This document shows, in pieces, positions 1,940-56,926 of a stretch of 60,000 nucleotides of DNA; the first letter of the stretch is position 1; each line of letters opens with the position of its first letter. The position numbers were made by a program, and so were the translations under genes. Under the pieces are notes generated by a model that had not been told where the DNA came from, did no database searches, and saw nothing but the letters and a program-made list of their open reading frames with translations. This DNA is from Mobula hypostoma (Eukaryota), in assembly GCF_963921235.1 (NCBI RefSeq), contig NC_086097.1, positions 68,636,001 through 68,696,000 of the forward strand, in the 5' to 3' direction.

Positions 1940-2006
1940 ATCACTGAATTATAGGAAAGATGTCAACAAAATAGAGAGAGTACAGAGAAGATATACTAGA
2001 ATGTTA

Positions 2007-2223
2007 ACAACAGGAATTCTGCAGATGCTGGAAATTCAAGCAACATACATCAAAGTTGCTGGTGAATGCAGCAGGTCAAGCAGCATCTGTAGGAAGAGGT
2101 GCAGTCGACGTTTCAGGCCGAGACCCTTCGTCAGTCCTGACGAAGGGTCTCGGCCTGAAACGTCAACTGCACCTCTTCCTGCAGATGCTGCTTGGCCTGC
2201 TGCGTTCACCAGCAACTTTGAGG
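2007..2223 (-). mobile_element. Penelope pseudo-LTR-derived fold-back mini-element
   Basis: 13-bp TSD TACTAGAATGTTA (1994-2006 / 2224-2236); ~85-bp inverted arms spanning 2050-2221; matches the 3' end of the Penelope element at 51690-51790. Confidence 0.9.
2132..2169 (+). ncRNA. Minimal type I hammerhead ribozyme motif (Penelope type)
   Basis: CAGTC-CTGACGA-A-GGGT(CTCG)GCCT-GAAA-C-GTC-AACTG: core boxes intact, stem II present, minimal stem III, stem I with one mismatch. Confidence 0.75.
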
Positions 2224-2689
2224 TACTAGAATGTTACCTGGGTTTCATCATCTAAGTTACAAAGAAAGGTTGAACAAGTTGGGTCTTTATTCTTTGGGAC
2301 GTAGAAGGTTGAGGAGGGACTTGATAGAGGTATTTAAAATTATGAGAGGGATTGATAGTTGATGTGGATAGACTTTTTCCATTGAGAGTGGAGGAGATTC
2401 AAACAAGAGGACATGAGTTGAGAGTTAAAGGGCAAAAGTTTAGGGGTAACATGAGGGGGAACAACTTTACTCAGAGAGTGGCAGCTGTGTGGAACGAGCT
2501 TCCAGCAGAAGTGGTTGAGGCAGGTTCGATGTTGTCATTTAAAGTTAAATTGGACAGCTATATGGACAGGAAAGGAATGGAGGGTTATAGGCTGAGTGCA
2601 GGTCAGTGGGACTAGGTGAGAGTAAGCGTTCGACATGGACTAGAAGGGCTGAGATGGCCTGTTTCCGTGCTGTAATTGTTATATGGTTT

Positions 2690-3415: not shown

Positions 3416-3526
3416 AAGTGAAAAAAAAGTAAAAGGATGCTCGGCAGGTCAGGAAGCATCTGTGGAGCAAGAAACGGGTTTTATGGAGACTCTTGTTGTA
3501 GCATGTGTGTGATTATGCATAGTCTG

Positions 3527-11899: not shown

Positions 11900-12096
11900 T
11901 TGTTCAACCCGCCCTCTGCTAGCTTCTCTTTTACTTAGATTAACTTGCTTTCTTTCTTTCTCAGTAGATTAAATGACTTTGACCAAAAGCAATATCTTCT
12001 TCTCTTTCCCCAAATACTGCTTGACCTGCTGAGGTTTTCCAGAATTTTCTGTTTTTATTTTAAATATCCAGCATCTGCAGTTTTATTTTTGATTTT
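11900..12096 (+). mobile_element. Decayed Penelope pseudo-LTR fragment
   Basis: ...CTGCTTGACCTGCTGAG...CCAGCATCTGCAG resembles the 3' ends at 35180-35260 and 47550-47620. Confidence 0.65.
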
Positions 12097-14360: not shown

Positions 14361-15962
14361 AAGTGGCATGCAAAAGTTTGGGCACCCCTGGTTAAAATTT
14401 CTGTTACTATAAATAGCTAAGCGAGTAAAAGATGAACTGATTTCCAAAAGGCATAAAGTTACAGACGACACCTTTCTTTAATATTTTAAGCAAGGTTATT
14501 TTTTATTTCCATCTTTTACAGTTTCAAAATAACAAAAAAGGAAAAGGGCCCGAAGCAAAAGTTTGGGCACCCTGCACGGTCAGTACTTAGTAACACACCC
14601 TTTGGCAAGTATCACAGCTTATAAATGCTTTCTGTAGCCAGCTAAGTGTCTTTCAATTCTTGTTTGGGGATTTTCGCCCATTCTTCTTTGCAAAAGGCTT
14701 TAAGTTCTGTGAGATTCTTGGGCTGCCTTGCGTGCACTGCTCTTTTGAGGTCTATCCACAGATTTTCGATGATGTTTAGGTTGGGGGACTGTGAGGGCCA
14801 TGGCTTGTGCCTCTTGAGGTAGTCCATTGTGGATTTTGAGGTGTGTTTAGGATCATTATCCTGTTGTAGAAGCCATCCTCTTTTCACCTTCAGCTTTTTT
14901 TTTACAGACGGTGTGATGTTTGCTTCCAGAATTTGCTGGTATTTAATTGAATTTATTCTTCCCTCTACCAGTGAAATGTTCCCCGTGCCACTGGCTGCAA
15001 CAGCATGATCAATCCACCCCCGTGTTTAACAGTTGGAGAGGTGATCTTTTCATGAAATTCTGCACCCTTTTTTCTCCAAACATACCTTTGCTCACTGCGG
15101 CCAAAAATTTCTATTTTAACTTCATCAGTCCACAGAACTTGTTTCCAAAAAGCATCAGGCTTGTTTAGATGTTCCTTTGCAAACTTCTGACGCTGAATTT
15201 TGTTGTGAGGACGCAGGAAAGGTTTTCTTCTGACGACTCTTCCATGAAGGTCATATTTGTGCAGGTGTCGCTGCACAGTAGAACAGTGCACCACCACTCC
15301 AGAGTCTGCTAAATCTTCCTGAAGGTCTTTTGCAGTCAAACAGGGGTTTCGATTTGCCTTTCTAGCAATCCTAAGAGCAGTTCTCTCGGAAAGTTTTCTT
15401 GGTCTTCCAGACCTCAACTTGACCCCCACCGTTCCTGTTAACTGCCATTTCTTAATTACATTACGAACTGAGGAAACGGCTACCTGAAAACACTTTGCTA
15501 TCTTCTTATAGCCGCCTTCTGCTTTGTGGGCATCATTTATTTTAACTTTCAGAATGCTAGGCAGCTGCTTAGAGGAGCCCATGGCTGCTGATTGTTGGGA
15601 CAAGGTTTGCGGAGTCAGGGTATTTATAAAGCTTTGAAATTTGCATCACCTAGCCTTTCCCAACGAGGACTGTGAACAAGCCATAGCCCTAACAAGCTAA
15701 TTAAGGTCTGAGACCTTGGTAAAAGTTATCTGAGAGCTCAAATCTCTTGGGGTGCCCAAACTTTTGCATGGTGCTCCTTTCCTTTTTGTCACTCTAAAAT
15801 TGTACAAAACAAAAATAATACACTAATCTTGCTTAAGATGTTGAAAAGAATGTTTCATCTTTAACTATACGACTTTTGGAGATCAGTTCATCTTCTACTC
15901 ACTTAACTATTCACAGTAACAGAAATTTTGACCAGTGGTGCCCAAACTTTTGCATGCCACTG
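14361..15962 (-). mobile_element. Tc1-family transposon, near full length, long IR/DR-type TIRs
   Basis: TIRs AGTGGCATGCAAAAGTTTGGGCACC at both ends; internal repeats of AAAAGTTTGGGCACCC (~14557, ~15750); TA flank at 15963. Confidence 0.95.
14600..15582 (-). pseudogene. Tc1 DD34E transposase, frameshifted
   Basis: [19 protein letters not shown] and WPSQSPNLNIIENLW motifs split over ORFs 14965-15603 and 14642-14887. Confidence 0.93.
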
Positions 15963-18737: not shown

Positions 18738-20293
18738 CTGGTGTCCCCTGCTTTTTGAATATTCGCTTTACGAAACCTCACTGTTACGAAAGACGTACAT
18801 TAGATCCCTGTTTTCGCTTTCAGAAGGTGTTTTCACTGTTACAAAAAAAAATCAGCACGCGATAAAAGGCAGCGCGCGCCCCAAGCAACCACTCTCCCCC
18901 CCGGGATTCGGAACGGCATTCTCGCCGGCAATGCTTAAACACATGCCTGTGAGCATCCGATTGCAAGATGGGTTCTAAGGTATCGGAAAAGCCTAAAAGA
19001 GCTCAAAAGGGTGTTACACTGAGCGTAAAACTAGACATAATTAAGCGTTTCGATCGTGGTGAACGAAGCAAGATGAAGCGAGTTTGGCTTGTGGAAGCTG
19101 ACGAAGATGCTGTTGAAGAGGTTTTGGCATCCCATGACCAAGAACTGATAGAAGCGCTGATGCAATTGGAAGAAGAAAGGATAACAATCGAAACTGAATG
19201 CAGTAGCGAACTGAACGTGAAGCAACTGCGTGAGATTTTCGCTGCAATGATAAAGTACGACTTTAATTTTGAAAGGGTATGTCGGTTTAGGGGATATTTG
19301 CAAGATGGTTTGAGTCCTTACAGAGAACTGTATGATAGAAAAATGCGTGAGGCTCAGCAGTCAAGCAAGCCTTCCACATCAGCCACAGCAGACGACGAAC
19401 CTCGACCTTCGACATCGAGGCAGGTAGTCATAGGAGAAGATGAGCTGCCTGCTCTAATGGAAACAGATGACACCCCAGTGTCCCACCACCCCAACACCCA
19501 GGGTGCAGACAGATACCGATTCGCGGAGAATGCAGCGGTAGCCGGGAGACACACACATCTTTAAGAAAAAAATCGAAATAAACATGCTAATTAATTAGGT
19601 GCCGCCCGACACGTAATTGTCTGCCCAGATCAGAGACGACGCAATCGGAAATCGGCACTGATCTGGGCTGACAATTACATGTCGGGCGGCACCTAATTAA
19701 TTAGCATGTTTATTTCGGCTTTTTTCTTAAAGGTGTGCTGTGTGCCTCCCGGCTACCACTGCACCCCTGCATGCTTCGCAGCAATGTATCGGTCGGCAGC
19801 CTGGAAGGTGGGGGCCACTGCACCACCCCAACCTGCGACGACTCAGTCTAACACACCATCATCGGTGTGCTCGGTGCTGTCCCAATTCTGGTACATACAT
19901 TATTTCTACTTTATATAGGCTGTGTATTTTTACGTGTTATTTGGTATGATTTGGCAGCTTCGTAGCTTAATGGTTACTGGAGAGAGTGTTTTTGCCAACA
20001 GCGCTTGTGTGAGATTTTCGCTACGGAGAACAGTGCAGTAATGATTGTGGAAAAGTATTTCTACTTTATATAGGCTGTGTATTTATCATATCATTCCTGC
20101 TTTTACTATATGTTACTGTTATTTTAGGTTTTATGTGTTATTTGGCATGATTTGGTAGATTATTTTTGGGTCTGCGAACGCTCACAAATTTTTCCCATAT
20201 AAATAAATGGTAATTGCTTCTTCGCTTTATGACATTTCGGCTTACGAACCGTTTCATAGGAACGCTCTACCTTCGGATGGTGGGGGAAACCTG
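18738..20293 (+). mobile_element. Tigger/pogo-family internally deleted DNA transposon
   Basis: TA|CTGGTGTCCCC ... GGGGGAAACCTG|TA termini; ORF begins with the CENP-B/psq-like KGVTLSVKLDIIKRFDRGER. Confidence 0.85.
18968..19564 (+). CDS. 198-aa truncated Tigger transposase ORF (N-terminal HTH start fused to acidic C-terminus, no DDE core); expression unknown
   Basis: Open ATG-to-TAA ORF; psq-like N-terminus; Tigger-like C-terminal motifs (EEVLASHDQEL, LNVKQLRE, SPYRELY). Confidence 0.4.
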   Translation: MGSKVSEKPKRAQKGVTLSVKLDIIKRFDRGERSKMKRVWLVEADEDAVEEVLASHDQELIEALMQLEEERITIETECSSELNVKQLREIFAAMIKYDFNFERVCRFRGYLQDGLSPYRELYDRKMREAQQSSKPSTSATADDEPRPSTSRQVVIGEDELPALMETDDTPVSHHPNTQGADRYRFAENAAVAGRHTHL

Positions 20294-33409: not shown

Positions 33410-33960
33410 CACATGACTCCAGAAGTTGTGGCTTCAAAACTGAAAGTCATGATCTAGATCAGGGGTTCCCAACCTGGGGTTAACAGATTGCTGAGTTAGT
33501 GGTAGGGGTCCATGGCATAAAAAAGGTTGGGAACCCCTGATTTAGATTCACACTTCATTCCTGTTGAGGAAATATTTCGTCATCAAAGATATAATCTCTA
33601 AAGTACTAACACCATAGATGAGATATTAAACCCAAGGCATTTTCAGATTCAAATAAACAGGTCATGGACTGGAAGCATTAATTTGGCCTCTCTTGCCACA
33701 AGCAAGGCCTGACTTACTGAATCTTCCCCAGCATTTTATGTTTTTATTTCAGATCAACAAAATCTATGTTTTATTTTTTACTTTCCATTTATAATTTACT
33801 ACATGAAAAATCAAGTGACACTATTTGAAGATCAGCTGAGGACTTTTTAGACTGACATATTCCCCTCTACCAATTTTCATATAATGTTTGTGAGGCTGTA
33901 TGTCATCTTTCCTACAAAACAGTTTAAAAGTGCATGTCAGAATTTCCTATAAACAAGAAA
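33410..33960 (+). mobile_element. Decayed Deu-domain SINE (SacSINE1/AmnSINE1-like) carrying two insertions
   Basis: AGATGAGATATTAAACCCAAGG and GACACTATTTGAAGA resemble Deu-domain motifs; interrupted by the MITE at 33460-33539 and a pLTR fragment at ~33660-33790. Confidence 0.4.
33460..33539. mobile_element. 80-bp hAT-Charlie-like MITE
   Basis: Perfect 15-bp TIRs CAGGGGTTCCCAACC / GGTTGGGAACCCCTG; 8-bp TSD ATCTAGAT / ATTTAGAT, fitting the NTCTAGAN target. Confidence 0.9.
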
Positions 33961-35052
33961 AGTCTAAATGTAAGCAATTTCTTTCTTACATTACTCTAGC
34001 TCCTCAATTTTTTTAAAATTTCATAAAATTGCTTGAAATGTCTTCATCTTTATATTAAAGGACTTATCACTTTATTCTTCCATGTATATTTCCGCAAAGA
34101 TTGAAGCATTCTAAACCTCTGACAAAATTGAACTGCAACACATGCCATGTTTATAGCACAAGGTGCAGATGAAGCAAAGTTTCACCTTGCAACAAAATAT
34201 TTTAATTCAGTGAGTTGGAGGAGCATTCTTCTTTCAGCAGCACGGACTAGAATATCAGTACATAAATATTATTTATACAGCTATATTATTTTTCATAACC
34301 TGCTGCAAACTGAGCTGCTGGAATAGTATTTTTAACTTTTTAAACTGTTAAGGCATTGGTTCCAACCTGCCTGTAAACTGTAAGCCTCAATGAATATCTT
34401 GCCTCAACATACTGACTTCAGGCTCTATGGTGGTAGGAGAAAGAATGAAAAACTCAAGGAGGAATATTAAAGACAGCAACACCATAAATTTTACCCTTGT
34501 AGAACCTTGTACCTTGTATCATTTTGGAACTAGAACAAACAGGGTATATGATAACTTGTTCCACCTTTCAATAATATTGTGGCCATTCCCTGCTCAATCA
34601 TCTTGTAATTCCCTTCAAACTCAGCTTTTAATACCCTTGAAAACGAAGCATCCATAGCCTTTCAAGGTAGAGAATTTGAAAAGATTTACAAACATTTCCG
34701 AGAAAATTTCTCCTCATCTGTCCAAAACAGTTTAGCCCTTATTCTGGGATAATCCTACATATCAGAATGAATTTCAAGTCGATAGCAAGCTAGAATGACG
34801 GTGTTAGGATTTTGGTGATTCCAATACCATATGGAAACTGCACAAATACAGCATGTTTATCAGTAGCTTTTTAAGAAAGCCTATATTAGTCCCAGATTTC
34901 CTCACCACTTATGCTGAGCATGACAACAACCCATGAGACAATTTCTACTCCAGATTCCAGATATCTCTGCAAATGGAATAAATGTTCAAAGTTGCACATA
35001 ATTAATAGACATAAAAGTACGTACGCTCAAAAACTACATCTTATTTTAATAA

Positions 35053-35269
35053 CAACACACATAAAAGTTGCTGGTGAACGCAGCAGGCCAGGCAGCATCT
35101 CCAGGAAGAGGTGCAGTCGACGTTTCAGGCCGAGATCCTTCGTCAGGAAGGGTCTCGGCCTGAAACGTCGACTGCACCTCTTCCTAGAGATGCTGCCTGG
35201 CCCGCTGCGTTCACCAGCAACTTTTATGTGTGTTGCTTGAATTTCCAGCATCTGCAGAATTCCTGTTGT
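35053..35269 (+). mobile_element. Penelope pseudo-LTR-derived fold-back mini-element
   Basis: 14-bp TSD TCTTATTTTAATAA (35039-35052 / 35270-35283); ~89-bp inverted arms spanning 35053-35235; close match to 2007-2223. Confidence 0.92.
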
Positions 35270-36162
35270 TCTTATTTTAATAAAGTTTCCTCCGATGTAT
35301 TGCCAGAGTCGGTAAAGTTCACAATGTGGTACTATTCCCTACTAACAGGATAAAGAAACCAACACATGAAACAAGGTGCTAGCTGGAGGTAGCCCATCTG
35401 GTTAACTGCTTCAACTTTATGTCAAGTTCTTGTATTAACCAACCCACTCACTCCAATTCTCAAACTACTCCAGTGCATTAAGAAAATAATTACCTTAAAA
35501 GGATTTTTTTCTTTACAGAAACTTACTTTATTCTTATTTGCATATAAACCTAAGTTGCACATCAATGCATCCCTTTAATGCCCTTTTTCACACTGGTGTG
35601 ACCAATCACCAGTGACACTCACCTTCATCATTACATAATATCATGCCTTTCTCTTAAATTCCCCCTCAATAAATACTCATATGATTACCCTCATTAAGGT
35701 GTTGCTCGTTCCTAACTTGCAGGAAAAGAGAACAAAAACAAGGGAGATTCAGAAAGCTAGAAGTGGCCCATCAGTCATCCTGGAATCAAACCTGTAGATG
35801 ATCCTAACGCCATCATGCTAGCTGACGGAATTAAGTACACCCATCCACTTGACTAATATTGACTTAATGACAGTAGCTTATGATGTGACAAGTAAAATTT
35901 GAGAGAGAAGAGTTTGGCACTTTGCATACATCCGCATGTACCTGAACATTCTCCTGTACTTGCTTCTCCTGTTTGGTCACATAAAACAATCAACTTTGGA
36001 AAGACAGTATGAATGCAGCTGAAAGCTTATTCTGCTGAATCAATGAGCTCCACCCATCCATAAATCTATTATTTCATTGGTCATTGTGATTATGTCAGCA
36101 GTGAATAAAAGGTCAAATGTAAAACAAAAACTTACCCTGATACTTCTAATTTGGCCAAAATA

Positions 36163-36478
36163 TACAAAAGCCTAAAAACATGTACCACCATAGTCCAAGA
36201 CAGCTTCTATCCTGCTGTTAAAAGGCTACTGAGTGGTGCCCTAGTACAAGACGGACTCTTGACCTCACAATTTACCTCCTTATGGCCAAGCAGTTTGTTG
36301 CCTGTTTGCACTGCACCTTCTCTGTAACTGCAAAAGTTTTATCCTGCATTCTCAGATTGTTCTCCCTTTACTACCTTAATGCACTGTTGTAATGAAATTA
36401 TCTGTATGGATAGCAATACAAGATGAAGTTTTTCACTGTACCTCAGTACATGTGACAATAAGAAACCAGATTACCAAC
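36163..36478 (+). mobile_element. Rex1/Babar-like LINE 3' end
   Basis: Reverse-complement relative of 42000-42360; ends CATGTGACAATAAGAAACC. Confidence 0.7.
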
Positions 36479-37357
36479 TTACTATCAAAAAACCCTACCG
36501 AAGAATGGGAAGAACTCCTTATAAAGGTACCAAGCTGAAGATACATTATAGAACATTTCAATATTATTGACCAGTTCAGATGTAAGTGAGACAGTTTTCA
36601 AATGGTCATTCATTTGTCACAGCAAGAGCAGGAGAAAGAAAAGGAGACAGCAACAACGAACCTGAATCAGAGGCAGAGGGATATGGAAGCTATGACCAGT
36701 TGGATATGGATACCAGCCATCCATTAACAGGATACTTCATAGGAAGCAGAAAAGAATGTTGGCCACACTAGCAAGTCCCTGACAGGCAAACCATACTGTG
36801 GACACTTTTAAGATTGAAGATATGTGAATCAAACATGAGTGATGTCACGAACCATTACTAATGTCTTTGCATACAGGCTCAACTTATGGGCATCCTGCAC
36901 ATATGAATGATCTCCCACAGATATTAGTTAATTCAAGCAAGAACTAATCTTCATAAAAATTGTTTTACGTAACCTTCCTTCCATAATTAGACACCATTGT
37001 CTCTTCCGCCACACTGCCTGTGCCACCAGATGAGGCTACTGAAATTTGCTTTGAAAATTGTCATGACAATCAAACTTGTGTAACAATAATATAGCATCCT
37101 CTGATACTTCAAGGCCAGCACCTGACACTATGAGCCTCTAAAAACATAAAATTTTAACACAGAAGAAACATCACTGTATTGATAATCCTTTGAATCATCA
37201 TGGCCTTAAGGGCTGCTGTTTAATCTCTTCTGTGAAGCTGCAGATCTTTGAGCAATAGATAGTTTATTTTCTTGCTGTGGTGATCTTTCTCCTGTCATTA
37301 TTTATTTTTTTCCTCATTGGAAATCCAAAGCAAAAGCATCACCAAGGATGAAGTGAA

Positions 37358-38006: not shown

Positions 38007-39293
38007 AACATGGTCATGTTTGACAAATCTTATTGAATTTTTTGATGAGGTTACTAAGAAAGTTGACGAGGGTAGAACGGTGGATGTTGTCTATATGGAC
38101 TTCAGTAAGGCCTCAGTAAAACTTCAACAAGGTTCCACATGGAAGGTTAGTTAGGAAGGTTAATCATTAGGCATTAATATGGAAGTAGTAAAATGCATTC
38201 AGCAGTGGCTAGATGGGAGATGCCAGAGAGTAGTGGTGGATAACTGTGTGTCAGGTTGGAGGACGGTGTGTAGTGGTGCGCCTCAAGGATCTGTAATGGG
38301 TCCAATGTTGTTTGTAATACACATTAATGATCTGGATGATGGGGTGGTAAATTGGATTAGTAAGTATGCAGATGATACTAAGATAGGTGGTGTTGTGTGG
38401 ATGATGAGGTAGGTTTTCAAAACTTGCAGAGAGGTTTAGGACAGTTGGAAGAGTGGGCTGAAAGATGGCAGATGGAGTTTAATGCGAAAAATGTGAGGTG
38501 TTACATTTTGGTAGAACTAATCAAAATAGGACATACATGGTAAATAGTAGGGCATTAAAGAATGCTTTAGAACAGAGGGATCTAGGAATAATGGTGCATA
38601 GTTCCCTGAAGATGGAATCTCATGTGGATAGGGTGGTGAAGAAAGCTTTTGGTTTGCTGGCCTTTATTAATCACAGCATTGAGTATAGGAGTTGAGATGT
38701 AATGTTGAATTTGTATAAGGCATTGGTAAGGCCAGATCTGGAGTCTTGTGTACAGTTCTGGTCACCGAATTATAAGAAAGATGTCAATAAAATTGAGAGA
38801 GTACAGAGGAGGTTTACTAAAATATTGCCTGGGTTTCATCTCCTGAGTTACAGAGAAAGGTTGAACAAGTTAGGTCTTTATTCTTTGGAGCATAGAAGGT
38901 TGAGGGGGGACTTGATAGAGGTGTTTAAAATTATGAGGGGGATTGATAGAGTTGACGCGGTTAGACTTTTTCCATTGAGAGTGGGGAAGATTCAAACAAG
39001 AGGACATGGGTTGAGAATTAGAGGACAAAAGTTTAGGGGTAACATGAGGGGGATCTTCTTTACTCAGAGAGTGGTAGCTGTGTGGAATGAGCTTCCAGCA
39101 GAAGTTGTTGAGGCAGGTTCGATATTGTCGTTTAAAGTTAAATTGGATAGATATATGGACAGGAAAGGAATGGAGGGTTATGGGCTGAGTGCAGGTCGGT
39201 GGGACTAGGATAGGGTAAGAGTTTGGCACGGACTAGAAGGGCCGAGATGGCCTGTTTCTGTGCTGTAATTGTTATATGTTTATATGGTTATAT
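38007..39293 (+). mobile_element. CR1 LINE RT and 3' end
   Basis: GAPQGSVMGPMLF, SKYADDTK and LVRPDLESCVQFWSP motifs; (TTATATG)n tail. Confidence 0.93.
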
Positions 39294-40799
39294 GCCCGAG
39301 AAACTTGTGGACCTATTGTTAATTTGTAGAAGTTTTTGTGATATAATTCTGATTAAGCTACAAACAACTCCTTCTGAGAAAGATGACATTTGAACCAAAC
39401 AAATTGGTGGTAAAAGCGAGAACTAATGCACTACAATTTTTCTAGATTTAAATCTCCTCCCTCCTACAATTATGTACTACTACGTAATGAGCTTTCCCAC
39501 AAATAGCTTTGATCATCCAAACTGCATCATATTAAGTTACGTATCATGCAACAGTATTTTAGTTAAACAATCCAACAAAATAGGGTAATCAAACAAGGTG
39601 GAAAGCGAACAATGAAGTACCCATTGTATCCAGATAAGGAAGACTGGGAATCAAGCAAGGACGACAATAGTCCCAAAGAGATTCAAGATGCAACATATTC
39701 AACCTACGTCACTGCTGGAAATGCTCTGCCTGCATTCCAAATGTTAACATTACAACCATGTAATGGCAATCTGATGAAACTGAAGATCGGAGAAGAGAAA
39801 GAAGGAGAGGAGGATATCACTGTCAGAGGGTAAAGGGATTAAGTATCATGGTTAGAATATCAAACCATGTCCTGAGTACAGGAAATAAAAAGGAAATGTT
39901 ATCTAATAATATTAAACCCATCTAGTGAAAGCAGGTAACTTTTGCTCCTACTTATCTTTTCAATTGTGTTGTGGAATGCAGGAAATAAAATCAGAAACTG
40001 CTGGAAGCAAGACAGGCAGAAGCTGCAGAAGGAGAAACAAATGATGATGAACTTAGAGCATGGAACTATGTTGTGGCCATTACAAAGACTTGGTTTAGAT
40101 AGGGACCTGAATGGATACTTGATATTCTAGGGTTTTGATGTTTTAGAAAAGATAGAGGGGGTGTGGGAATTGCATTATTGTTCAAGGACAATACCAGAGC
40201 TGCACTCAAAAGGGACATAATGGAGGGCTTATCCACTGAATTCATGTGAGTATAACTCAAAAATAATAAAATAAAAAAGGTGCAGGAGGGTTTCTTAAAA
40301 CAGTATACAGATGAACAGTTCCAGGTTCTGTATGGCCCAGCGAAAGGAAGGGCCATACAGAACCCAGAACTGAGAAATGAGCTTGGCCAGGTAACTGACC
40401 ATTCAGTAGAAGATGATTTAGGAAACAATGGTCACAACTACTTAAGTTTTTAAACAGCTGTAAATAACATGGACTTTGCAGGAAGGTATATTAAATTGGG
40501 GCATGGTAAATTATGAAATTATAAAGGAGCAAGAGAGAGTTAATTGTAATCAACTGTTCTAGGCAAGTCCACTGCTGACATGTGGAGGGTAGAAGAAAAA
40601 ATGAAGACAGTAAGGTGAGACCCTTGTATTATGAGAGAGATGGTGAATTTAGTCAAAAAGAAAAAGCATAAGTAAGTTTAGGAAGCCAAAATCAACTGAG
40701 CTCTGGAGGATTATAAAGTAGTCAAAAAAGAACTCAAGAAGGGAAATGGGGAAATTAGTAGAGGACATGAAAAGTCATTGGCAAGTAAGATTAAAGGTC

Positions 40800-41510: not shown

Positions 41511-42004
41511 CTCTCAGGTGAGGACTGATGAGTAGGTAATATTGTTCTGTTGTTCAGAAAAGGAATTTAGGATAACCCACAAGCCTAAAATCAGTAGTAT
41601 GGAAGCTGCTGGAGAAGATTCTTGGGAATATGAGCAGTTGGAAAACCATGGCCTAATTGGGGACAGTCAACATGATGTTGTACAAGACAGGTCATGGCTT
41701 AGTAACCTGATTGTTCTCAGCAGGTGAAAACATGACTGATGAAGTAAAAGGTGTGAATGTTGTCTACATATAGTTTTTTATACAGTATGTGACAAGTCCC
41801 CTAATGATAGGCTCATCCAAATGATTAAGGTGCATAGGATCTGTAGTGACTTGACCATTTGGATTCAGAATTGGCTTGCCCACAGAAGACAGTGGTCAAT
41901 GGGATTATTCTGGCTGAAGGTCCATAATTAGCGTGTTTCACTTGGATCACTGCTGCTTGTGAAAACATGGATGAAGTTCAGTAAGTTTGCAGACAATAAA
42001 TTGT

Positions 42005-42375
42005 TAAATTGGTTTATTATTGTCACATGTACCAAGGTACACTGAAACTTGTCTTGCATACCATTCATACTGATCAATTCATTACAACAGGGCACTGAGG
42101 CATTACAAGATAAAACAATAACAGAATGCAGAATAAAGTGTTGAAACTACAGAAAAAGTGCAGTGCAAGTAGACAATATGACACAAAATCATAATGAGGT
42201 ATATTATAATGTCAAGAGACTCTCTTACCAAACTACGAAACCATTTGATAGTCTTATAACAGTGGAATAGAAGCTGTCCTTGAGTTTGGTGATACATGCT
42301 TTCAGGCTTCTGAATCTTCTGCCCAAGGGGAGGAAGAAAAAGAGAGAATGTCTGAGGTGGTGGGGTCTTTGACTA
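42005..42375 (-). mobile_element. Rex1/Babar-like LINE 3' end
   Basis: LPLGRRFRSLKACITKLKDSFY; minus-strand GTGACAATAATAAACC. Confidence 0.8.
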
Positions 42376-44510
42376 CAATACAAATACTGGTGGTGTTGTG
42401 GACAGTGTAGAACATTGCCAAAGGACACAGCAGAAAATAGATCAGTTATAGATATGGGTGGAGAAACTGCAGATGGAGTTTAATCCAGCCAAGTGTGAGG
42501 TTTTGCATTTTGGGAAATCAAATGCAAAGGGGAAGTACACATTTAACGGCAGGTTCCATAACAGTGTTGATGCACAGAGAGGTCTTACGGCCCAAGTCCA
42601 TAGCTCCTGAAAATGGCTGCATAGGATGATTGGATGATAAAGCCAGTATGTGTCATGTTTCGATTTGTTGAGGTACCAAATTCAGGAGTCAAGAAGCTAT
42701 GTTTTAACTTTATAAAACTACAGTTAGGCCACATAGAGTACTACATTTATTTCCAGTTGCTCCAATGTAAGTAGGACATGGAGGTTTTGGAGAGGGGAAG
42801 AGGAAAACCAGGATGCCTAGATTAGAGAACAGGTCATACAAGGAGATTATGGACAAACTTGGGTTGTTTTTTCTGGAGTGGCAGAGGCTGATGGGAGACC
42901 TAATAGAGCTTTATAAGGTTATGAAAGGCACAGAGAGGGTAAATAGTCAGTATATTTATCCCAGGATCAAAATATCTAATACAGGAGGGAGAGAGGGTGA
43001 AATGAGATGTGCAGAGCAAGTTTTTCTTGTTATGCAGAGACTGGTAGGTGCTTGAAATGTGCTGCAAGGAGTGGGAGTGGATGTGAAGATGTTTAAAGGC
43101 TCTCAAAACAGACACACGAACATGTAGAGAATGGAGAAATATACATGTTTTGTAGGCAGAACGTTGTGGGCCGAAGCCATGATCTTCTGCTATACAGTTC
43201 TATGTTCTAAACTAAGTTAACTATTTCAGGTTGAAGATCCGTCAGTAGACTGGGAAGGTGAAAAAGCAAGTTTAAGTGATAGAAATTGTGGGGAGCAGCT
43301 CATAAGGATAAAGGGAACAGCTTGATTGGTGAAGCCGGAGTTTCCCAGATGATCCAACTGTTTATGGAAATATCTAGTTAATGAATTAATGATAATGCTT
43401 GAGAAAGCGTGTCATAGTCTCAAAATAAAAACAACCATCAAATAGAAGAATGGAGAATGTGTTCAGTTTATACAGACTTCTAGAAGTGACTGCACATAGG
43501 GGTGGTTAATGGTTGATGAAGTTCTCCAAGAATATACAAAGAGATTGCTAATGATCAATCAAGGAAGGAGTGGCTCCCCAAAAATGACTGATTGAAGTTA
43601 GCTCGCTTTACTAAAACCCACAAACTAAGAGACCTAATAAAGTGAAAGCAATAAAATAGTGACCTTTCAGGTAAAAAGCACACAAAGTTATCTCCAGTGG
43701 AATCTAAGGCCTCAGTAGGAGACAGAAGATCATTACTGTACTATGTTGTAAGAACTAAGTAAATTCCCAGTTTAAAATAGGGAAATACTTAACTGTTGAA
43801 GCCTCCTCCTCACTTCCTCAGGAAATCTTCCCTCCACAAGCTTCAGGCTTTTAGTTTCCTAATCCACAATCCCAACATCCACCACTCCTCCCCCAAAGAT
43901 CTATTGTCATACACAAGTACGGTTTCAACTGGCTCCTGCCCACTCTATTTCTTCCTACCTTGACTTCCCCCTTGCTTCCATCATCCTGTTCCTTCCCACT
44001 TATATCTGTGACACCTTTGAAACAGCCTGTGCCTTTGACAGTTTCTGGTTACCTGCTCCCAACTAGATTATGGATGTATAACCCTTCTATGCCTTCATCC
44101 CACCAGGACTGGCTGAAAGCCTTCTGGTTCTTTCTTGAAAAGAGGCCCAAAATGTCTCCCTCCACCAATACACTAATTTACTTAATTTGAACTCTTTCTC
44201 AGAATGAAGAACTTTTCCTTCATCGCAAGTAACTCACTCCAAATCAAGTGTGGAACTATAGGAACTCAGAAGGACTCAAGCTATACCCATCTTTTGTGGG
44301 ATATGTGGAACTTCCCTTATTTCTGTTCCAGTCGGGATCCATCATCTTTTTCAGTATATTGACAACTATTTCCTGCATTCATACAGAACCTGAAAATATC
44401 ATTACTTTTGATGCCAATTTCCACCTTGCTTTCACTCAGTCCATCCACATGTTTTTCCCTTTCTGATTTCTTTGTTTCCAACTTGGAAGACAGGTTAGCA
44501 ACCAACATCA

Positions 44511-45396
44511 AAAGTGAGGGATTGATTCTGGAACCCCTCGCGGATACCAAAAAACGCGGATACTCAAGTCCCTCATCCAACCTGTCTCAATGAGGTGGAC
44601 CTTAGGACCCAGCTGAACCCCGGACCTTATTTAACCTGTCTCAGTGCGGTGGACATTAGGACCCGGCGGTGGAGCTCTGAATCCTCAGTGTTTCAGTTCA
44701 CGAAAATAATCACAATCACAATTGAAAATGAAGTGGAAATAATAAAGCAATCGGAAAGAGGTGAAACACCACCGGTCATTGGAAAAGCGTTAGGCTACAG
44801 TTGGTCAACGATCAGAACAATTTTAAAGGATAAAGTGAGAAAGGCCCTGCCCCGATAAAAGCTACAATTGTTACTAAGCAACGCAGTGGTTTAATTATTG
44901 GGTTTTGGGGTTTTGTGTTTTTAATCCTGCACATCAACCCGGCACGGAGGGAGAGCGCACTTGGGAGCGATCTGTCACTAGATCAAACTCGGCGCTGAAA
45001 CATACGTTTCTTAAGTGTTTTATATGCATAGAAAGGTAGAATGTATACTATATACTAAGACAAATGTTTGACTAACTGACGCTAAATAATACTGGATGTA
45101 CCTGTTCCGATTTACTTAGGAAGAGAACTTCCAGTTTTTTTTCGATCCTGATCCACGATAACCTACGCACATCCTCCCATATACTTTATATCATCTCTAG
45201 ATTACTTATAATACCTAATACAATGCAAATGCTATGTAAATAGTTGTTATACTGCATTGTTTAGGGAATAATGACAAGAAAAAAAAAGTCTGTACATGCC
45301 CGAACAACAAGTGCTGGAAGAGCACTTCCGGGTTTTCTCAATTTGTGGTTGGTTGAATTTGCGCATGTGGAACTCGTGGATAAGGAGGGCCCACTG
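44511..45396 (+). mobile_element. Tigger-derived (MER2-like) non-autonomous transposon
   Basis: 3' terminus GGATAAGGAGGGCCCACTG|TA; psq-HTH remnant ITIENEVEIIKQSERGE...STIRTILKDK; 5' TIR appears lost. Confidence 0.8.
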
Positions 45397-45469
45397 TACT
45401 TCCTACCCTCCTGTTCCCTGTATTCCTCCACTCCATTCTCCCAGTTCCTTGTCTTCACTGTATTTCATA

Positions 45470-45805
45470 TTTTCTTACAAGAAGCAATTCAGCCCACTGA
45501 GGCTATACTAATGCCCAAAGCATTCCCATTGTTATCATTTTCTCACCTATTGCTCTGTAACCTGTTCTCTTTCACATGCCCACCAACTCTCCCAAGACTC
45601 TCATCACCCCGCTACACTAGGGTCAACTGACAGAAAACCAAGTCCCTACCAACAAGAATATGGACTATGAGAGTAAACAATAGGATCTGGTGGAAACTGA
45701 ATTAACTAGAGTGAGAAGTGCAGCCTCCACACAGACAGCATCCAGGTCAGGTTTGAACCTGGGAAAGAGCAGCAGTATTAACTGCTGTTCCAGTGTGCCA
45801 ACCCA
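45470..45805 (-). mobile_element. Decayed tRNA SINE (HE1-like)
   Basis: Minus-strand head GGCACACTGGAACAGCAGTTAATACTGCTGC...GGTTCAAACCTGACC. Confidence 0.55.
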
Positions 45806-47039
45806 TTCTACTGATGAGACTTTCTGCACAAATGACTCTTACAACAGAGATATATTGCAAGTTCCATAACTGTGACTTCCCCTCTTGCATTGTTAGCAAA
45901 GCTCTCAACCACTTTTCATCTGTTTCCCAGACCTCTGCTCTCAGACAGAACAAGTATAGGATTCCCCTGATCCTGATCTTCCATCTTCTGTCACCCATAT
46001 GCAATAGATCATTTTCCTTCTTCTTCAATGAGAATCCATCTCTTAAGCATATTTTCACCTTGTCTCCCTCTTCAGCATTTCAAGGGGACCTTTGCCTTTA
46101 CAACTACCTGGTATGCTCCTTGACCCCCATCACCCTTTAATTTCTCATGACACTTCCTCATGCAACCAAAGGAGATGCAACAGCTGCTGTTATTCAATCA
46201 ATTTTTTGCTCATAATTTATTTTTAATGAGTGATTACAAAATTATTAAACAATGAATATCTATGAAATCTTTAAATCAAAGACAACATTTAGAGGTACAT
46301 TTAGTATCATTTTAGTACATCAACTTCAAACCCAACTGGATAAATGATTTCCTTCCCTTCTTTTCTCTTAAATGTCTTTTACTTCTTTCTTTTTAAAAGT
46401 TTATCATTTGACATCAGTTTTTGACTCCTGAATCTGTACAGCTCAGTTCTAAATAAACTCACTTGGAGATTTTCAATCAAAATGTATCAATAGATTAATA
46501 TCTGAATATAGCCTCACAGTAAAGAATGAAGAGATTCTGTTCATTTTAACAGACCAGCTAAGATTGAGGACTCACCACTTAAGTCAAATCACAAGCATAA
46601 TCCACATTATATATTAGACCATCAGTAAAACAAGGATAATCACTCTATAACCCTTCAAATCATAAATATGTAATACAAGTATCATATGCAGTACAAATCC
46701 AATGCATATTTAAAAGTGTAAAGTACAGACATTCATTTGCTGAGGAAGAAAATAACTAAAATTATCAAAACCCTTGAAATAAAATCATAAATGTTGAAGC
46801 AAGCACACCTTTAGTCTAGATGGATTCAGTACATCTATGACATCTTTCCATGCACACAAACAGTATTAATAATAAAGTCCATTACATCCATTACACAGTA
46901 CTTACAGATGGTAACAGTACTTACCATCTGTGTTTATTACAGTTGTAAAATAATCAGATCAACTATATAATGTCTGAACTAGGTTCACAATAATATACTA
47001 TTATCACAATGAGATGCAAGCTTTGTAATTTGTAACTAA

Positions 47040-48006
47040 TGCAAAACCAAAGAACTGATTATTGACATTATCATATCAGAAGATCTGTCCTGGGATCAGC
47101 ATGTAAGTGCCCTCACAAAGGCACAACAGAGCCTCAATTTTCTTAGAAGTTTGCACAGATTTAGCAGGTCATCTAAAACATCTATAGATGCACAAGCTTC
47201 AAAAGAGGAGTGTACTCTGATTGGTTTCATCACAGCCTGGTAGGAATCACCAATGCCCAAGAACGGAAAAGCATACAAAAACTGCTGGATCACAGGCATC
47301 CATCACAGCTCTCCACACTACTGAGCATATCTACAAAGAGCGCTGCCACAAGAAAGCAGCATCCATTATCGAGGGCTCCACCATCCAGGCAATGCTCTCT
47401 TTGCTCTGCTGCCATCAGGAAGGAGTTGCAGGAACCTGAGGATCCACACCAACACACACAAAATACTGGAGGAACTCAGCAGGCCAGGCAGCATCAATAG
47501 AAAAAAAAAGTACTGTTGGCATTTTAAATGTCAACTGTACTTTTTTCCACAGATGCTGCCTGGCCTGCTGAGTTCCTCCAGCATTTTGTGTGTGTTGCTC
47601 GGATTTCCAGCACCTGCAGATTTTCTTTTGTTTGTGATCAGGATCCACATCACCGGGTTCGAACAGTTATTACCCTTCAACCAGGCTCCTGAACCAGCAT
47701 GGATACCTTCACTCACCTCAACTCCAAACTGATTTCACAACCTATGGACTAACTTTCAAGGACTCTGCAATTATATGTTCTCTGTATTATTTATTTACTT
47801 ATTTCTTTATTTATTGTTATTTTTAATTTGTACAGTTTGGCTTCTTCTGCATATTGACTGTCAGTCCTTGCGTGTCGTTTTACATTGATTCTATTGTATT
47901 GTATTTCTGTTTTACTGTAAATGACTGCAAAAAAATGAATTTCAAGGTAGTATATGGTAACATACGTCTACTTCGCTAATACATTTACCTTGAATGTTGA
48001 ACTTTA
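47040..48006 (+). mobile_element. Rex1/Babar-like LINE 3' portion, interrupted by a fold-back mini-element
   Basis: EHIYKERCHKKAASII; 3' UTR similar to 23040-23391. Confidence 0.8.
47449..47639 (+). mobile_element. Penelope pseudo-LTR-derived fold-back mini-element (older subfamily)
   Basis: 10-bp TSD AGGATCCACA (47439-47448 / 47640-47649); inverted arms from CAACACACACAAAAT... to ...ATTTTGTGTGTGTTG. Confidence 0.88.
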
Positions 48007-50357: not shown

Positions 50358-51789
50358 GCGCGTTGAAATCATTAACTTTGCCTCCAACTTTCACCCTGCC
50401 CTCAAATTTACCTGGTCCATTTCCGACACCTCCCTCCCCTTTTTTGATCTTTCTGTCTCTATCTCTGGAGACAGCTTATCTACTGCTGTCTACTATAAGC
50501 CTATGGACGAACTCTCACAGCTACCTGGACTATTCCTCTTCCCACCCTGTCTCTTGCAAAAATGCCATCCCCTTCTCACAATTCCTCTGTCTCTGCCACA
50601 TCTGCTCTCAGGATGAGGCCTTTCATTCGAGGACGAGGGAGATGTCTTCCTTTTTTAAAGAAAGGGGCTTCCCTTCCTCCACCATCAACTCTGCTCTCAA
50701 ACGCATCTCTCCCATTTCACGCACATCACCCCATCCTCCCGCCACCCCACTAGGGATAGGGTCCCCCTTGTCCTCACCTACCACCCCACCAGCCTCCAGG
50801 TCCAACATATAATTCTCTGTAACTTACGCCACCTCCAACAGGATCCCACCAATAAGCACATCTTTCCCTCCCCCACTTTCTGCTTTCTGTAGGGAACGCT
50901 CCCTACATGACTCCCTTGTCCATTTGTCCCCATCCCTTCCCACCGATCTCCCTCCCGGCACTTATCCTTGTAAGCGGAACAAGTGCTATACATGCCCTTA
51001 CAACTTCCTCCCGCACCATCATTCAGGGCCCCAGACAGTCCTTCCAGGTGAGGCAACACTTCACCTGTGAGTTGGCTGGTGTGATATACTGCGTCCAGTG
51101 CTCCCGGTGCGGCCTTCTATATATTGGCAAGACCCGACACAGGCTGGGAGACCGTTTTGCTGAACATCTACGCTCTGTCCGCCAGAGAAAGCAGGATCTC
51201 CCAGTGGGCACACATTTTAATTCCATGTCCCATTCCCATTCTGATATGTCTATCCATGGCCTCCTCCACTGTCAAGATGAAGCCACACTCAGGTTAGAGG
51301 AACACCACCTTATATTCCATCTGGGTAGCCTCCAACCTGATGGCATGAACATTGACTTCTCTAACTTCCGTTAATGCCCCTCCTCCCCTTCTTACCCCAT
51401 CCCTTATTTATTTATTTATTTAATACCCCCCCCCCCCCGCCTTTCCTCTCTCTCTGTCCCTCTCACAATAACTCCCTGCCTTCTCTCCATCTTCCTCTGG
51501 TGCTCCCGTCCCCCTTTCTTTCTCCCTATGCCTCCCGTCCCATGATCCTCTCCCTTCTTCAGACTTGTATCCCTTTTGCCAATCTACTTTCCATCTCTTA
51601 GCTTTATCCCTCCCCCTCCTGTCTTCTCCTATCATTTCGGATCTCCCCCACCCCCTCCCACTTTCAAATCTCTTACTATCTCTTCTTTCAGTTAGTCCTG
51701 ACGAAGGGTCTCGGCCCAAAACGTCGACTGTGCTTCTTCCTATGGATGCTGTCTGGCCTGCTGCGTTCCACCAGCATTTTGTGTGTGTT
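50358..51789 (+). mobile_element. Penelope-like element, 5'-truncated (RT thumb, GIY-YIG endonuclease, pseudo-LTR)
   Basis: FHPALKFT, YLDYSSSHP and GVIYCVQCSRCGLLYIGKTRHRLGDRFAEH...GMN; pyrimidine-rich 3' UTR; possible TSD GCCTTT. Confidence 0.93.
51693..51730 (+). ncRNA. Minimal hammerhead motif with a core mutation (GAAA to AAAA)
   Basis: TAGTC-CTGACGA-A-GGGT(CTCG)GCCC-AAAA-C-GTC-GACTG. Confidence 0.65.
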
Positions 51790-52549
51790 GCCTTTCCATA
51801 AACTGTTAATCAATGCTCTGTAACCAATTATAATGCGGGTAGATCAAAACAACACAAATCAAGCAAGGTCTCAACTGTTTTTACATTCCCTTTGACAACA
51901 GGGAGAACCCTGCCCATAACTACCCACTGAAAAGCTGAATCCAGATTAGTGCACTCTTTGAAGAGTATGTACTGGAGGCCTGGACTGAAGACTACAAGCA
52001 AGCCAACCAGTATATTTGAATCTTCATCAAGCAGGTGAACCCATCAGAAGGCTTCACATTTATATATTAGCCTCTATGACTTAAACACCATTGACTAACT
52101 AACTCTATAACGTTATCTTCTATTGTTAAGACGCCAAACACCCTTTCACTCCAAAAATGTACAGAACAAAACATAAAATTTCAGGCAAAGTAATTTGAGT
52201 TACTGTTGACATAATGAGTTCATATTCAGTTTCACATTCATTGATTTATTACACACACATTGACACATGCACTGAAATTCATGTCTGTGTTAACAACCAA
52301 CAAAACATAAGGATGTACTCGTGACACCACACATTCCAGCACCAACACAGAATACCTATATTGTTCTGCAGAGCACAAGCCAAGAACAGCAACAAAACAA
52401 CTAGAGCAAAACAAGTCGTTTTCTTTTCACCCACCCACTCACACAGACAAACAGGCCTCCTACCCCAGGACAGTCTGCCTCTGGGTCTTCAGTCTCCTGC
52501 AGGCTCTCAGACATCGGACCACCAACTTCCTTAGTGGACTTGTAGGCAT

Positions 52550-54782: not shown

Positions 54783-55559
54783 GCAGGTTTTCTATGTTTC
54801 TGTGCATCAGACCCCTAACTTTCGAACATGCCAACCCTGGGGTACAACCATCAAACCTCAACTTCTGGACGCACCAATTTCAGTCTTTGACCTTTGGGCT
54901 TCGATCTTCTGTATAAACCCCAGGAATCAACAATCATCGAACCCCAAACTCCAAAGTCAAAATTTGGATTTGCATGGAGCTCCAACCCTGAGACTCACCA
55001 ATCTGGGGATTCACTAGCCCTCGTGCTTCCTGCCTGCAACGACCTCCAATCCCATGACCCACCGACTTGAGGGAACTCACCAACCTGGTAGTTCACCAGC
55101 TCTTGTTCGTGGAGCCCACTGACTTTGGTCAATGACCAAGGAGATCTTTGGTCTTTGTCCATAGCACCTGCTAACTCGACATTCGTCTCTATGGGAATCA
55201 CTGACCTTCGACCTCGAAACATTCCAACCTGGACTCCAACCACTGGCTCCTGCCCCTGATTCTTTATTTACTGCCTTTGACCTCGAACTCCCATGTTGCC
55301 ACCAAAACCATCCCTATGAACCTAAAAAACAACCAAGTCTGAGCCACAACCTTCACATTCTATTATCATTCTATTATTAGTTACAAAGATGTTTTCACTG
55401 CACAAAGCTCTTGCTTCTACAGCAATGTAAAAGTACTTCTCTGGATTGCATGTTAATAAGTTATTCATAACACACAAAAGGGCACCAGTCTTCTTCAAAG
55501 AGGTAAACTTATCGCTTGACTGTTAATATGGAGACATCACAGCAGCTGCAAATTACATC

Positions 55560-56926
55560 CAGGTAGGTTCTAGCTGCACTGGTAAAGTTTCCTACACTCA
55601 AGCTAAACAGAAAACTTCAACATTTTGCAGTCAATTTCTCAACTTCAGATGGTCTTCAGACTCTTCTCTTCCCTTTCTAGTCTCAATCTCCATCTCAGGC
55701 CTCCCACATCTGTCTTGATTATGCTTCCTCCATAGCTACCTCTTGTCGGGACCTCTTTCCATTTTCTCACTTCTTCTGTCACATATAGTCCAACAATAAG
55801 ACATCCTGCACAGGTGCTCAAAAATATCTTCCTTCTTCCTTAACTGTGGTTCCACCTCTACCATATTAGACAAATCTCCTGATCACATCTCATCTATTTC
55901 CTGAACCTACAATTTCAACACTTCTCCTCCAGGACAGAGCAAGAATGAAGGTCTCTCGTCTCTACATCTGCAGCCTCAACATTCAATGGATCAGCCTTTT
56001 CAACTTATTTCTGCTCCAAGATTCCACCTTCAGTCACATCTTCCCCTCCTCTTCCCTTTTCATATTTTTAAGGGATTGCTCCCTTCATGATTCCTGGTTC
56101 ATTCTTCCATTCACCTACTACTGTCATATGACACTTTGCCATGCAATTATATGAAGTGCAATACCCATTTTTTCACTTCTTCTCTTTCCACCATTCAGAG
56201 ATCCAAAAGGTCTGTCTAGCTAAGGTAGCGATTCACTTGCACATCTTGCAATCTAGTGTACTGGATTCATTGTTCACAATGAGGCCTCCTCTACACAGAA
56301 GAAAATAAATGCAGGTTGGGTGATAACTTTGCAAAGCACCTGTGATCAGTTCACAGGAATGCCATGAGCTCTCGGTTGTCTGTCACGCTAATTCCCAATC
56401 CCACCCGCATTTCAACCTTTTTCTCTGTGGCTTTCTGTAGTAGTACAATGAAATTTAATTATGCTTGAAGAGCATTACCTCATCTTTTGTTTGAGCCCAC
56501 TGCAGGCCACAAGACTGCATCAAATTCTTCAAACTTAGATAACTTTCTTTTGCTTTTGTATCATGACTAGCATTTTTTCTTTATATAGTCTGGCCTGAAG
56601 GCTGCACAAATGAAAGAAAAAGAGAAAACAGACTCCACAACATTAGCAACACATTTGCTCAGGTCAATGTCCCTTAACAACCAATTATTTTACTCTATTA
56701 GACAAATGCCTTTTTTATCCCATTACACTCTACTAACTTTTCTGCTCCCTAAACTAACTTGTTTCTTTCATTCTCGGATCTGATCACAGGTGCTTTGCAA
56801 AGTTATCACCCAACCTGCATTTGTTTTGGTCCTTGACCAAAATCAATAACATTTTTCTTTCCACAGATGCTGTCTGTCCTGCTTATTTTTTCCCAACATT
56901 TTCTGTTTTTATTTCAGATTTCCAGA
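55560..56926 (+). mobile_element. Old decayed Penelope-like element (GIY-YIG region plus pseudo-LTR)
   Basis: Collinear with 50360-51790 (e.g. TTCACTTGCACATCTTGCAATCTAGTGTACTGG...GGCCTCCTCTACAC); ends CCACAGATGCTG...AGATTTCCAG. Confidence 0.7.

Follow-up and report, generated by a model that had tools for sequence, protein, structure and literature searches.

Two-armed Penelope-like hairpin insertions with junctions inside the hammerhead motif in Mobula hypostoma

Results

Hairpin insertions in the window

The window is a stretch of 60,000 nucleotides from Mobula hypostoma (RefSeq assembly GCF_963921235.1, contig NC_086097.1, positions 68,636,001 to 68,696,000 of the forward strand), and positions are counted from its first letter. 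It contains three hairpin insertions, E1 (2007-2223), E2 (35053-35269) and E3 (47449-47639). E1 is flanked by a 13-bp TSD (TACTAGAATGTTA) at 1994-2006 (+), with an exact repeat at 2224-2236 (+). The TSD of E2 is 14 bp long (TCTTATTTTAATAA; 35039-35052 and 35270-35283, both +) and that of E3 is 10 bp long (AGGATCCACA; 47439-47448 and 47640-47649, both +). The two copies are identical in each case. The probability of a random match of this kind within 2 nt of both ends is approximately 6e-7 for E1, 2e-7 for E2 and 4e-5 for E3. The coordinates, arms and exact repeats all confirm the sequence-only reading of this DNA, in which the three elements were described as separate insertions with TSDs of 13, 14 and 10 bp. 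As in other inverted-pLTR units, the TSD is variable in length and lies around the whole unit.

The repeat that was hit by E1 has an unbroken paralogue at 38762-38891. E3 sits in an older repeat, for which looser empty paralogues are present at 22948, 20294 and 13088.

The parent-type Penelope copy

A 5'-truncated, parent-type Penelope copy, here called P51, is located at 50362-51791 (+) and is recognized by blastx matches to ray proteins and by a Pfam GIY-YIG match. It contains the end of the RT region, the GIY-YIG endonuclease and the 3' UTR/pLTR. P51 has no inverted arm, no tail and no clear TSD. The arms of E1-E3 match its 3' end with 82-88% identity (blastn), which agrees with the earlier assignment of the hairpins to a Penelope pLTR terminus.

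The blastx match covers what follows the RT core, up to and including the endonuclease. P51 breaks off after the RT core, and this core is present in the close homologues P0001, P0003 and P0012. Of the 12 longer protein matches, 10 have E values of 1e-23 or lower, and the best are 68-88% identical and come from rays. The open stretch that encodes the GIY-YIG domain, with its stop, is located at 50991-51374 (+). The C-terminal endonuclease matches PF01541 with an E value of 9.2e-5 and a score of 23.1 bits against a Pfam cutoff of 22.6. Pairs of cysteines can be seen upstream of the GIY-YIG motif; RT phylogeny and the presence or absence of a Cys-rich linker ahead of the endonuclease separate the Penelope/Poseidon clade from the Neptune clade. 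Two upstream pieces of P51 match 0 Pfam families.

The coding region is followed by a 316-nt 3' UTR tract (51374-51689, +) that is 82% pyrimidine and contains few inverted microhomologies. Downstream of this tract, inspection and folding identify a minimal type I hammerhead motif of 36 nt (51694-51729, +). Its stem I is formed by AGTC (51694-97) and GACT (51726-29), CTGACGA begins at 51698, and these parts are joined by stem II, (G)AAA and the palindromic ACGT. The predicted cut falls between 51725 and 51726. The position G12 is A in P51, while G is the majority letter at 51718 in all four sequencing runs described below. The anatomy of this segment upholds the earlier claim that the pLTR carries a hammerhead motif. 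Rfam returned no hammerhead family among 16 matches with E values of 5 or lower.

Two AG dinucleotides lie at the 5' edge of the motif. The first (51690-51691, +) is a candidate 3' splice acceptor, with 89% C/T in the preceding 19 nt. The second (51694-51695) is directly at stem I of the hammerhead. One reading frame is open from 51690-51695 through the end of the pLTR and, in the tailed arm of E2, through the tail as well. This is as expected if the end of the pLTR encodes the start of an ORF. The open frame has no match among the 12 homologues, all of which are partial proteins. In Drosophila virilis, the end of an intron is placed at the 5' end of helix I (passage in PMC4209133), and this intron is also described in a passage of PMC2377424.

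Arms and junctions

In all three elements, a 5'-truncated copy is paired head-to-head with an inverted copy, and a 34-nt tail is present on only one of the two arms. Complementarity between arms is 93-97%. The fold of E1 has a z score of -22.5, and 0 of 200 shuffles fold equally well. In a two-armed transcript, prediction places the hammerhead within the long duplex, where it would be buried.

In E1, the tailed arm (2007-2134, -) is 128 nt long and begins at the C of CTGACGA. Its tail (2007-2040, -) has 0 differences in 34 positions from the tail of E2. The tail-less arm (2135-2223, +) begins at the TC of stem I, and this TC (2135-2136) is the spacer at the centre of the hairpin. The AG at 2133-2134 is a microhomology common to both arms, if the upstream sequence was the same as in the 51.7-kb copy. 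The tail-less arm stops 7-9 nt before the usual tail-less end, inside a predicted terminal stem-loop.

In E2, the tail-less arm (35053-35148, -) extends up to the TC that precedes CTGACGA, and the tailed arm (35147-35269, +; 123 nt, with the tail at 35236-35269) begins at the GA within CTGACGA. The GA at 35147-35148 is common to both arms, and the centre is a 5-nt loop (35142-35146). The 2-bp stem at this centre has a predicted energy of +1.3 kcal/mol on its own, so a snap-back stem of this length would not be stable without protein.

E3 belongs to a different subfamily than E1 and E2. Its tail-less arm (47450-47524, -) begins at the AAA of GAAA, and a single base (47525) separates it from the tailed arm (47526-47639, +). 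The tailed arm is 114 nt long and contains the tail at 47598-47631 plus 8 more nt.

When the arms are mapped on P51, the tail-less and tailed arms begin at 51696 and 51698 in E1, at 51696 and 51703 in E2, and both at 51719 in E3. All three centres therefore fall inside the hammerhead motif, as was originally proposed. The centre of E3, which had been placed near 47525, is inside the motif; it does not lie at the cut but at the AAA of GAAA, 7 nt upstream. The tail-less and tailed arms reach 30 and 28 nt upstream of the predicted cut in E1, 30 and 23 nt in E2, and 7 nt in E3. In E1 and E2, the tail-less arm goes further 5' than the tailed arm, and the central bases belong to the tail-less arm. 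The arms are nearly symmetric, with offsets of 2-4 nt in E1, 7 nt in E2 and 0 nt in E3. The tail-less ends of E2 and E3 coincide with the end of the non-inverted P51 (51790-51791).

These limits contradict two ideas about how the hairpins arose. The first is that ribozyme cleavage sets the point of fold-back. In all three elements the arms keep 7-30 nt from upstream of the cut site. The RNA template was therefore uncut there, and cleavage was not the cause. The second is that a single cDNA simply folded back on itself. In E1 and E2, neither arm contains the other and neither can have been the template of the other, which excludes the fold-back of one cDNA and calls for two initiations. E3, with both arms starting at 51719, cannot on its own distinguish fold-back from two initiations.

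Relationships among the insertions

E1 and E2 differ from each other at 5-7 of 80 positions and form one subfamily. E3 differs from them at 16-21 of 63 positions. Within elements, the two arms differ at 4 of 80 positions in E1 and at 3 of 80 in E2, which is below the number of differences across elements. Three sites separate both arms of E1 from both arms of E2. At one site, both tail-less arms have G and both tailed arms have A, an arrangement with a rough chance of 0.04. This arm-specific site is more easily explained by a common two-armed ancestor, or by two templates, than by one template.

The sequence-only reading suggested that each hairpin formed de novo at insertion. The three element-specific sites, the divergence between arms and the differing junctions and outer ends weakly support this suggestion, and the one arm-specific site conflicts with it. 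On these sequence comparisons, a separate origin for each insertion is favoured over a master MITE but is not proven.

Sequencing-run contigs and pattern searches

Logan contigs from 4 of 23 listed runs (X1, X5, X9 and X15) were aligned to 50920-51819. Between 101,356 and 164,789 contigs per run match this 900-nt segment, which points to a very large family. Summed contig depth does not give copy number and is weak evidence. The depth of bin 51670-99 is 0.95-1.19 times that of bin 51700-29 in all four runs, and there is thus no cliff at the 5' edge of the motif. Bin 51640-69 has only 0.46-0.64 of the depth of the motif bin. Loose ends at 51791 are frequent in every run (995, 819, 1314 and 883 contigs). 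No strand change was found among the 15 joints listed, out of a set with at least 1500 more.

Pattern scans for further copies found nothing in viral contigs (0 matches) or in metagenome contigs (0 matches). With a looser pattern, 16 loci came up, all of which match little beyond the pattern itself and are thus chance matches.

Other repeats in the window

Decayed pLTR ends and ORF fragments of older Penelope subfamilies are present at 11971-12091 (+), 33660-33759 (+), 3422-3494 (-), 39983-40043 (-) and 44101-46202 (+). No inverted pLTR arm was found near the first four of these. The copy at 12 kb keeps its tail, and its upstream part runs into a pyrimidine tract.

In an older Penelope copy at 55554-56925 (+), the hammerhead is broken between CTGAT and GGTC by a 51-nt inverted insert (56777-56827). 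The insert corresponds to the inverted endonuclease region of the same element (56302-56352), approximately 475 nt upstream, with CTGAT as a microhomology. It differs from its source at only 2 of 51 positions in a heavily decayed element, which suggests that DNA repair added it later, as a templated insertion. It represents a change of strand within the motif for which no RNA is required.

A further hairpin at 19554-19737 has 86-nt arms that are 92% complementary and extends to about 19531-19763. It has no pLTR or Penelope similarity and is possibly a non-autonomous DNA transposon. A pair of 118-nt inverted repeats (14362-14479 and 15844-15961), 1.36 kb apart and 86% complementary, is by its size presumably a candidate decayed DNA transposon. 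Inverted repeat pieces approximately 5.5-6 kb apart (36151-36245 with 42232-42326, and 36431-36493 with 41985-42047) occur in the region 35984-36500 and 41985-42326. Small local palindromes are found at 40316-40372 and 33452-33547.

The hairpins also match miRNA families in Rfam, in all cases below the gathering scores, and these matches reflect nothing but the long duplex. The match of E3 (47454-47593) to MIR8670, for example, scores 87 bits against a gathering score of 150 and is through the long duplex only. Such hairpins could pass for, or supply, small-RNA precursors.

Discussion

Comparison with known elements

The layout of inverted arm, tail and TSD is already published, and E1-E3 are the smallest form of this known Penelope pattern. 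In Adineta vaga, the element Pen2a_Av has an inverted pLTR beside a direct one, a 31-bp tail at one end and a TSD of 9-10 bp (PMC3846280). The same source (Arkhipova et al. 2013) describes palindromes at the inverted junction and reads them as a sign of self-priming. The inverted terminal repeats treated by Schostak et al. 2008 vary in size between copies (PMC2377424). E1-E3 resemble Pen2a_Av and the scheme of Craig et al. 2021 (PMC8557442) in three respects: the inverted 5'-truncated copy is head-to-head, a tail of 30-40 bp is present at one end only, and a TSD (9-10 bp there) surrounds the whole unit. In these accounts, too, there are palindromes or overlaps at the junction that are read as self-priming. 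Unlike Pen2a_Av, E1-E3 have neither an ORF nor a second direct pLTR and consist only of two arms of 75-128 nt. The passages on Pen2a_Av and on the Craig scheme do not map junctions against the hammerhead. A literature search by titles and the starts of abstracts, with subscription papers mostly outside its range, found no mapping of Penelope inversion junctions against the hammerhead.

The closest functional comparison is PAc, the Poseidon element of Anolis carolinensis, as described in passages of Frangieh et al. 2024 (PMC11167929). In vitro, both target strands are cut and extended. RT starts at two sites with the tail between them, and the protein is predicted to be a dimer. Ribozyme mutants left insertion in vitro unchanged, and cleavage is dispensable in that assay. 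E1-E3 share with PAc AT-rich targets, a hammerhead upstream of the starts and independence from cleavage, and they would also share two RT starts that are a tail apart and the cutting and extension of both target strands. They differ in that the joining of two cDNAs into an inverted unit, which is proposed here, does not appear in those passages of PMC11167929.

The motif of P51 fits the minimal type I hammerhead architecture of Cervera and de la Pena 2014 (PMC4209133, in the part that sets out this architecture). Like known minimal hammerheads, it has CUGANGA, a single unpaired nucleotide preceding helix II, GAAA, a minimal helix III that is palindromic and a helix I of 4-5 bp. A G.U pair occupies 10.1-11.1 in the hammerheads of E1 and E2. 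A whole stem I is possible only in the tail-less arm of E1, which carries a CpG change there. Schistosoma has dual hammerhead motifs 100-700 bp apart on opposite strands, whereas the opposed copies in E1-E3 abut and the junction cuts into them.

Two other classes were considered and rejected. Non-LTR retrozymes, as outlined by Li, Clavereau and Pollet 2026 (bioRxiv 10.64898/2026.07.22.740005), are likewise non-coding and pLTR-related and carry a type I hammerhead. They consist of units repeated directly in tandem, with two or more complete motifs, and E1-E3 are single inverted pairs with truncated or mutated motifs. A MITE is not supported by the asymmetric ends, with a tail on one side, by TSDs of 10-14 bp or by junctions that differ in all three elements.

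A model for the two-armed insertions

E1-E3 are best interpreted as dead, extremely 5'-truncated, two-armed insertions of GIY-YIG Penelope-like elements from at least two subfamilies, each the product of one event in which hammerhead catalysis was not involved. The probability of this reading as a whole is estimated at roughly 0.7. The TSDs, the head-to-head arms, the tail on one arm and the arm limits upstream of the ribozyme cut are all directly observed.

According to this model, the endonuclease would nick both target strands 10-14 nt apart. One nick would prime reverse transcription at the end of the tail, and the other would prime at an internal site approximately 34 nt further in (41-43 nt in E1). 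This two-primer step is modelled on in vitro work in another species. Both cDNAs would be copied from RNA that is uncut at the hammerhead, with no part played by its catalysis, and would halt after roughly 75-130 nt. The 3' ends of the cDNAs may then be joined by 2-nt inverted microhomologies, AG/CT in E1 and GA/TC in E2, where the AG/CT join presumes upstream sequence as in the 51.7-kb copy. In E3, the join would be near-blunt or untemplated (for example, with untemplated A additions), and the one-base centre fits such a join. As an alternative final step, the tail-less cDNA may snap back and anneal to the tailed cDNA, which would give an indistinguishable product. Two cDNAs that stopped independently would not be expected to give arms so nearly symmetric; either a snap-back or a shared stop would account for the near-symmetry.

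The model would also place the centres in the hammerhead, mainly because the motif is 95-130 nt from the end of the tail, which is a typical length for a truncated Penelope insertion. The tailed arms of E1, E2 and E3 are 128, 123 and 114 nt long. The median length of de novo Chlamys insertions in Chlamydomonas is given as 128 bp (PMC9977147), and the Chlamys clade is described as mostly without canonical hammerheads (PMC8557442). In the same source, Naiad elements, which also have no canonical hammerheads, show an inverted 5'-truncated copy plus tail. A second reason would be that the motif is the final segment with many short inverted repeats ahead of the 316-nt pyrimidine tract. Inverted microhomologies of at least 2 nt occur at 20 of 36 positions in the motif, at 59 of 316 in the pyrimidine tract and at 395 of 1024 in the ORF.

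Clustering of junctions in the motif

The chance that all three centres fall within the 36-nt motif is 0.11 if centres are uniform over 51690-51765 and 0.0008 if they are uniform over the whole 3' UTR. Exponential length priors with means of 60-200 nt give 0.003-0.015, or 0.007-0.033 when weighted by microhomology, and longer means give lower values. All of these values are for n = 3 and make no correction for the fact that short hairpins were picked after the fact and that two of them come from one subfamily. Three cases do not suffice to show guidance of the turning points by the ribozyme, and insertion length and microhomology density are confounders. Plausible null models still leave a residual p of about 0.01, which stands against the model above.

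A non-catalytic hot spot would explain this residual. The folded and possibly protein-bound hammerhead, or a splice-acceptor-like 5' edge, would stop the RT or mark the end of the RNA, and junctions would gather at two places, stem I and the 3' edge of stem II. All three centres do lie in the motif, with a chance of approximately 0.002-0.03 under short-length priors, and the tail-less arms of E1 and E2 begin at the same base (the equivalent of 51696), directly after AG. E3 stops just 3' of stem II, where the RT would first meet the stem. The intron end at the 5' end of helix I in D. virilis (passage in PMC4209133) is consistent with such an edge, and 593 contigs of run X1 have loose ends before 51694. 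These loose ends, however, are listed for only one of the four runs, and their consensus is pyrimidine-rich (agreement 0.39), which fits diverged upstream tracts of sister subfamilies. In the contigs, depth does not fall off abruptly at the motif, and no site is reported at which molecules start or stop in large numbers. The polymerase also ran through the whole motif in E1 and E2, and the same layout occurs in clades that are described as without canonical hammerheads (PMC8557442). With only three elements, chosen post hoc and two of them from one subfamily, a hot spot of this general kind has a small but real chance of being correct. Its specific form, in which junctions truly concentrate at the hammerhead's 5' edge, beside a splice-acceptor-like AG, and the uncleaved fold or the adjoining intron boundary sets where the two cDNAs stop and are joined, has a similarly small chance.

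Other origins of the hairpins

E1 and E2 could instead have been copied from a single two-armed master (a hairpin of MITE-like or non-autonomous type), with deletion at the centre and gene conversion between arms at a later stage. Their identical tails, the arm-specific site common to both elements and the centre of E2, which equals that of E1 minus 7 nt between two GA words, are what a master would leave. The three sites that sort the arms by element are not, and neither are tail-less outer ends that are 7-9 nt apart or TSDs that differ in length (13, 14 and 10 bp). E3, moreover, has another centre and belongs to another subfamily (16-21 of 63 differences), and no strand change is among the 15 contig joints listed out of a set with at least 1500 more. 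A master origin is accordingly rated as quite improbable.

The hairpins may also have formed after insertion, by DNA repair or by template switching during replication on a plain truncated copy. The 51-nt inverted templated insertion in the hammerhead of the older copy (56777-56827 from 56302-56352), which is seemingly younger than its host element, is a precedent for such an event. A post-insertion origin is nevertheless very improbable, since each outer end directly abuts a TSD, E2 and E3 have tail-less arms whose ends coincide with that of the non-inverted P51, and in E1 and E2 the tail-less arm includes bases that are absent from the other arm.

Hardly credible is an origin in which hammerhead self-cleavage creates an RNA 5' end where the cDNA runs off and folds back: the centres are near the motif, but none of the three is at the cut, the arms retain 7-30 nt that self-cleavage would have removed from the RNA, uncut RNA is the dominant substrate in Anolis with no RNA-seq reads starting or stopping at the cut (passages in PMC11167929), and minimal hammerheads are described as inactive in vitro as monomers (PMC4209133).

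Implications

The insertions bear on two questions: what the hammerhead does in Penelope elements, and how the inverted ends of these elements arise. The minimal units described here show that the ribozyme site in the template had not been cut and, for two of the three, that neither arm can be a copy of the other. Both observations agree with the two-site, two-strand initiation seen in vitro. If junctions do form a true hot spot at the hammerhead, the hundreds of thousands of copies in the ray would be a first in vivo readout of the role of the Penelope hammerhead region in integration, and they would provide direct genomic proof of two-primer insertion.
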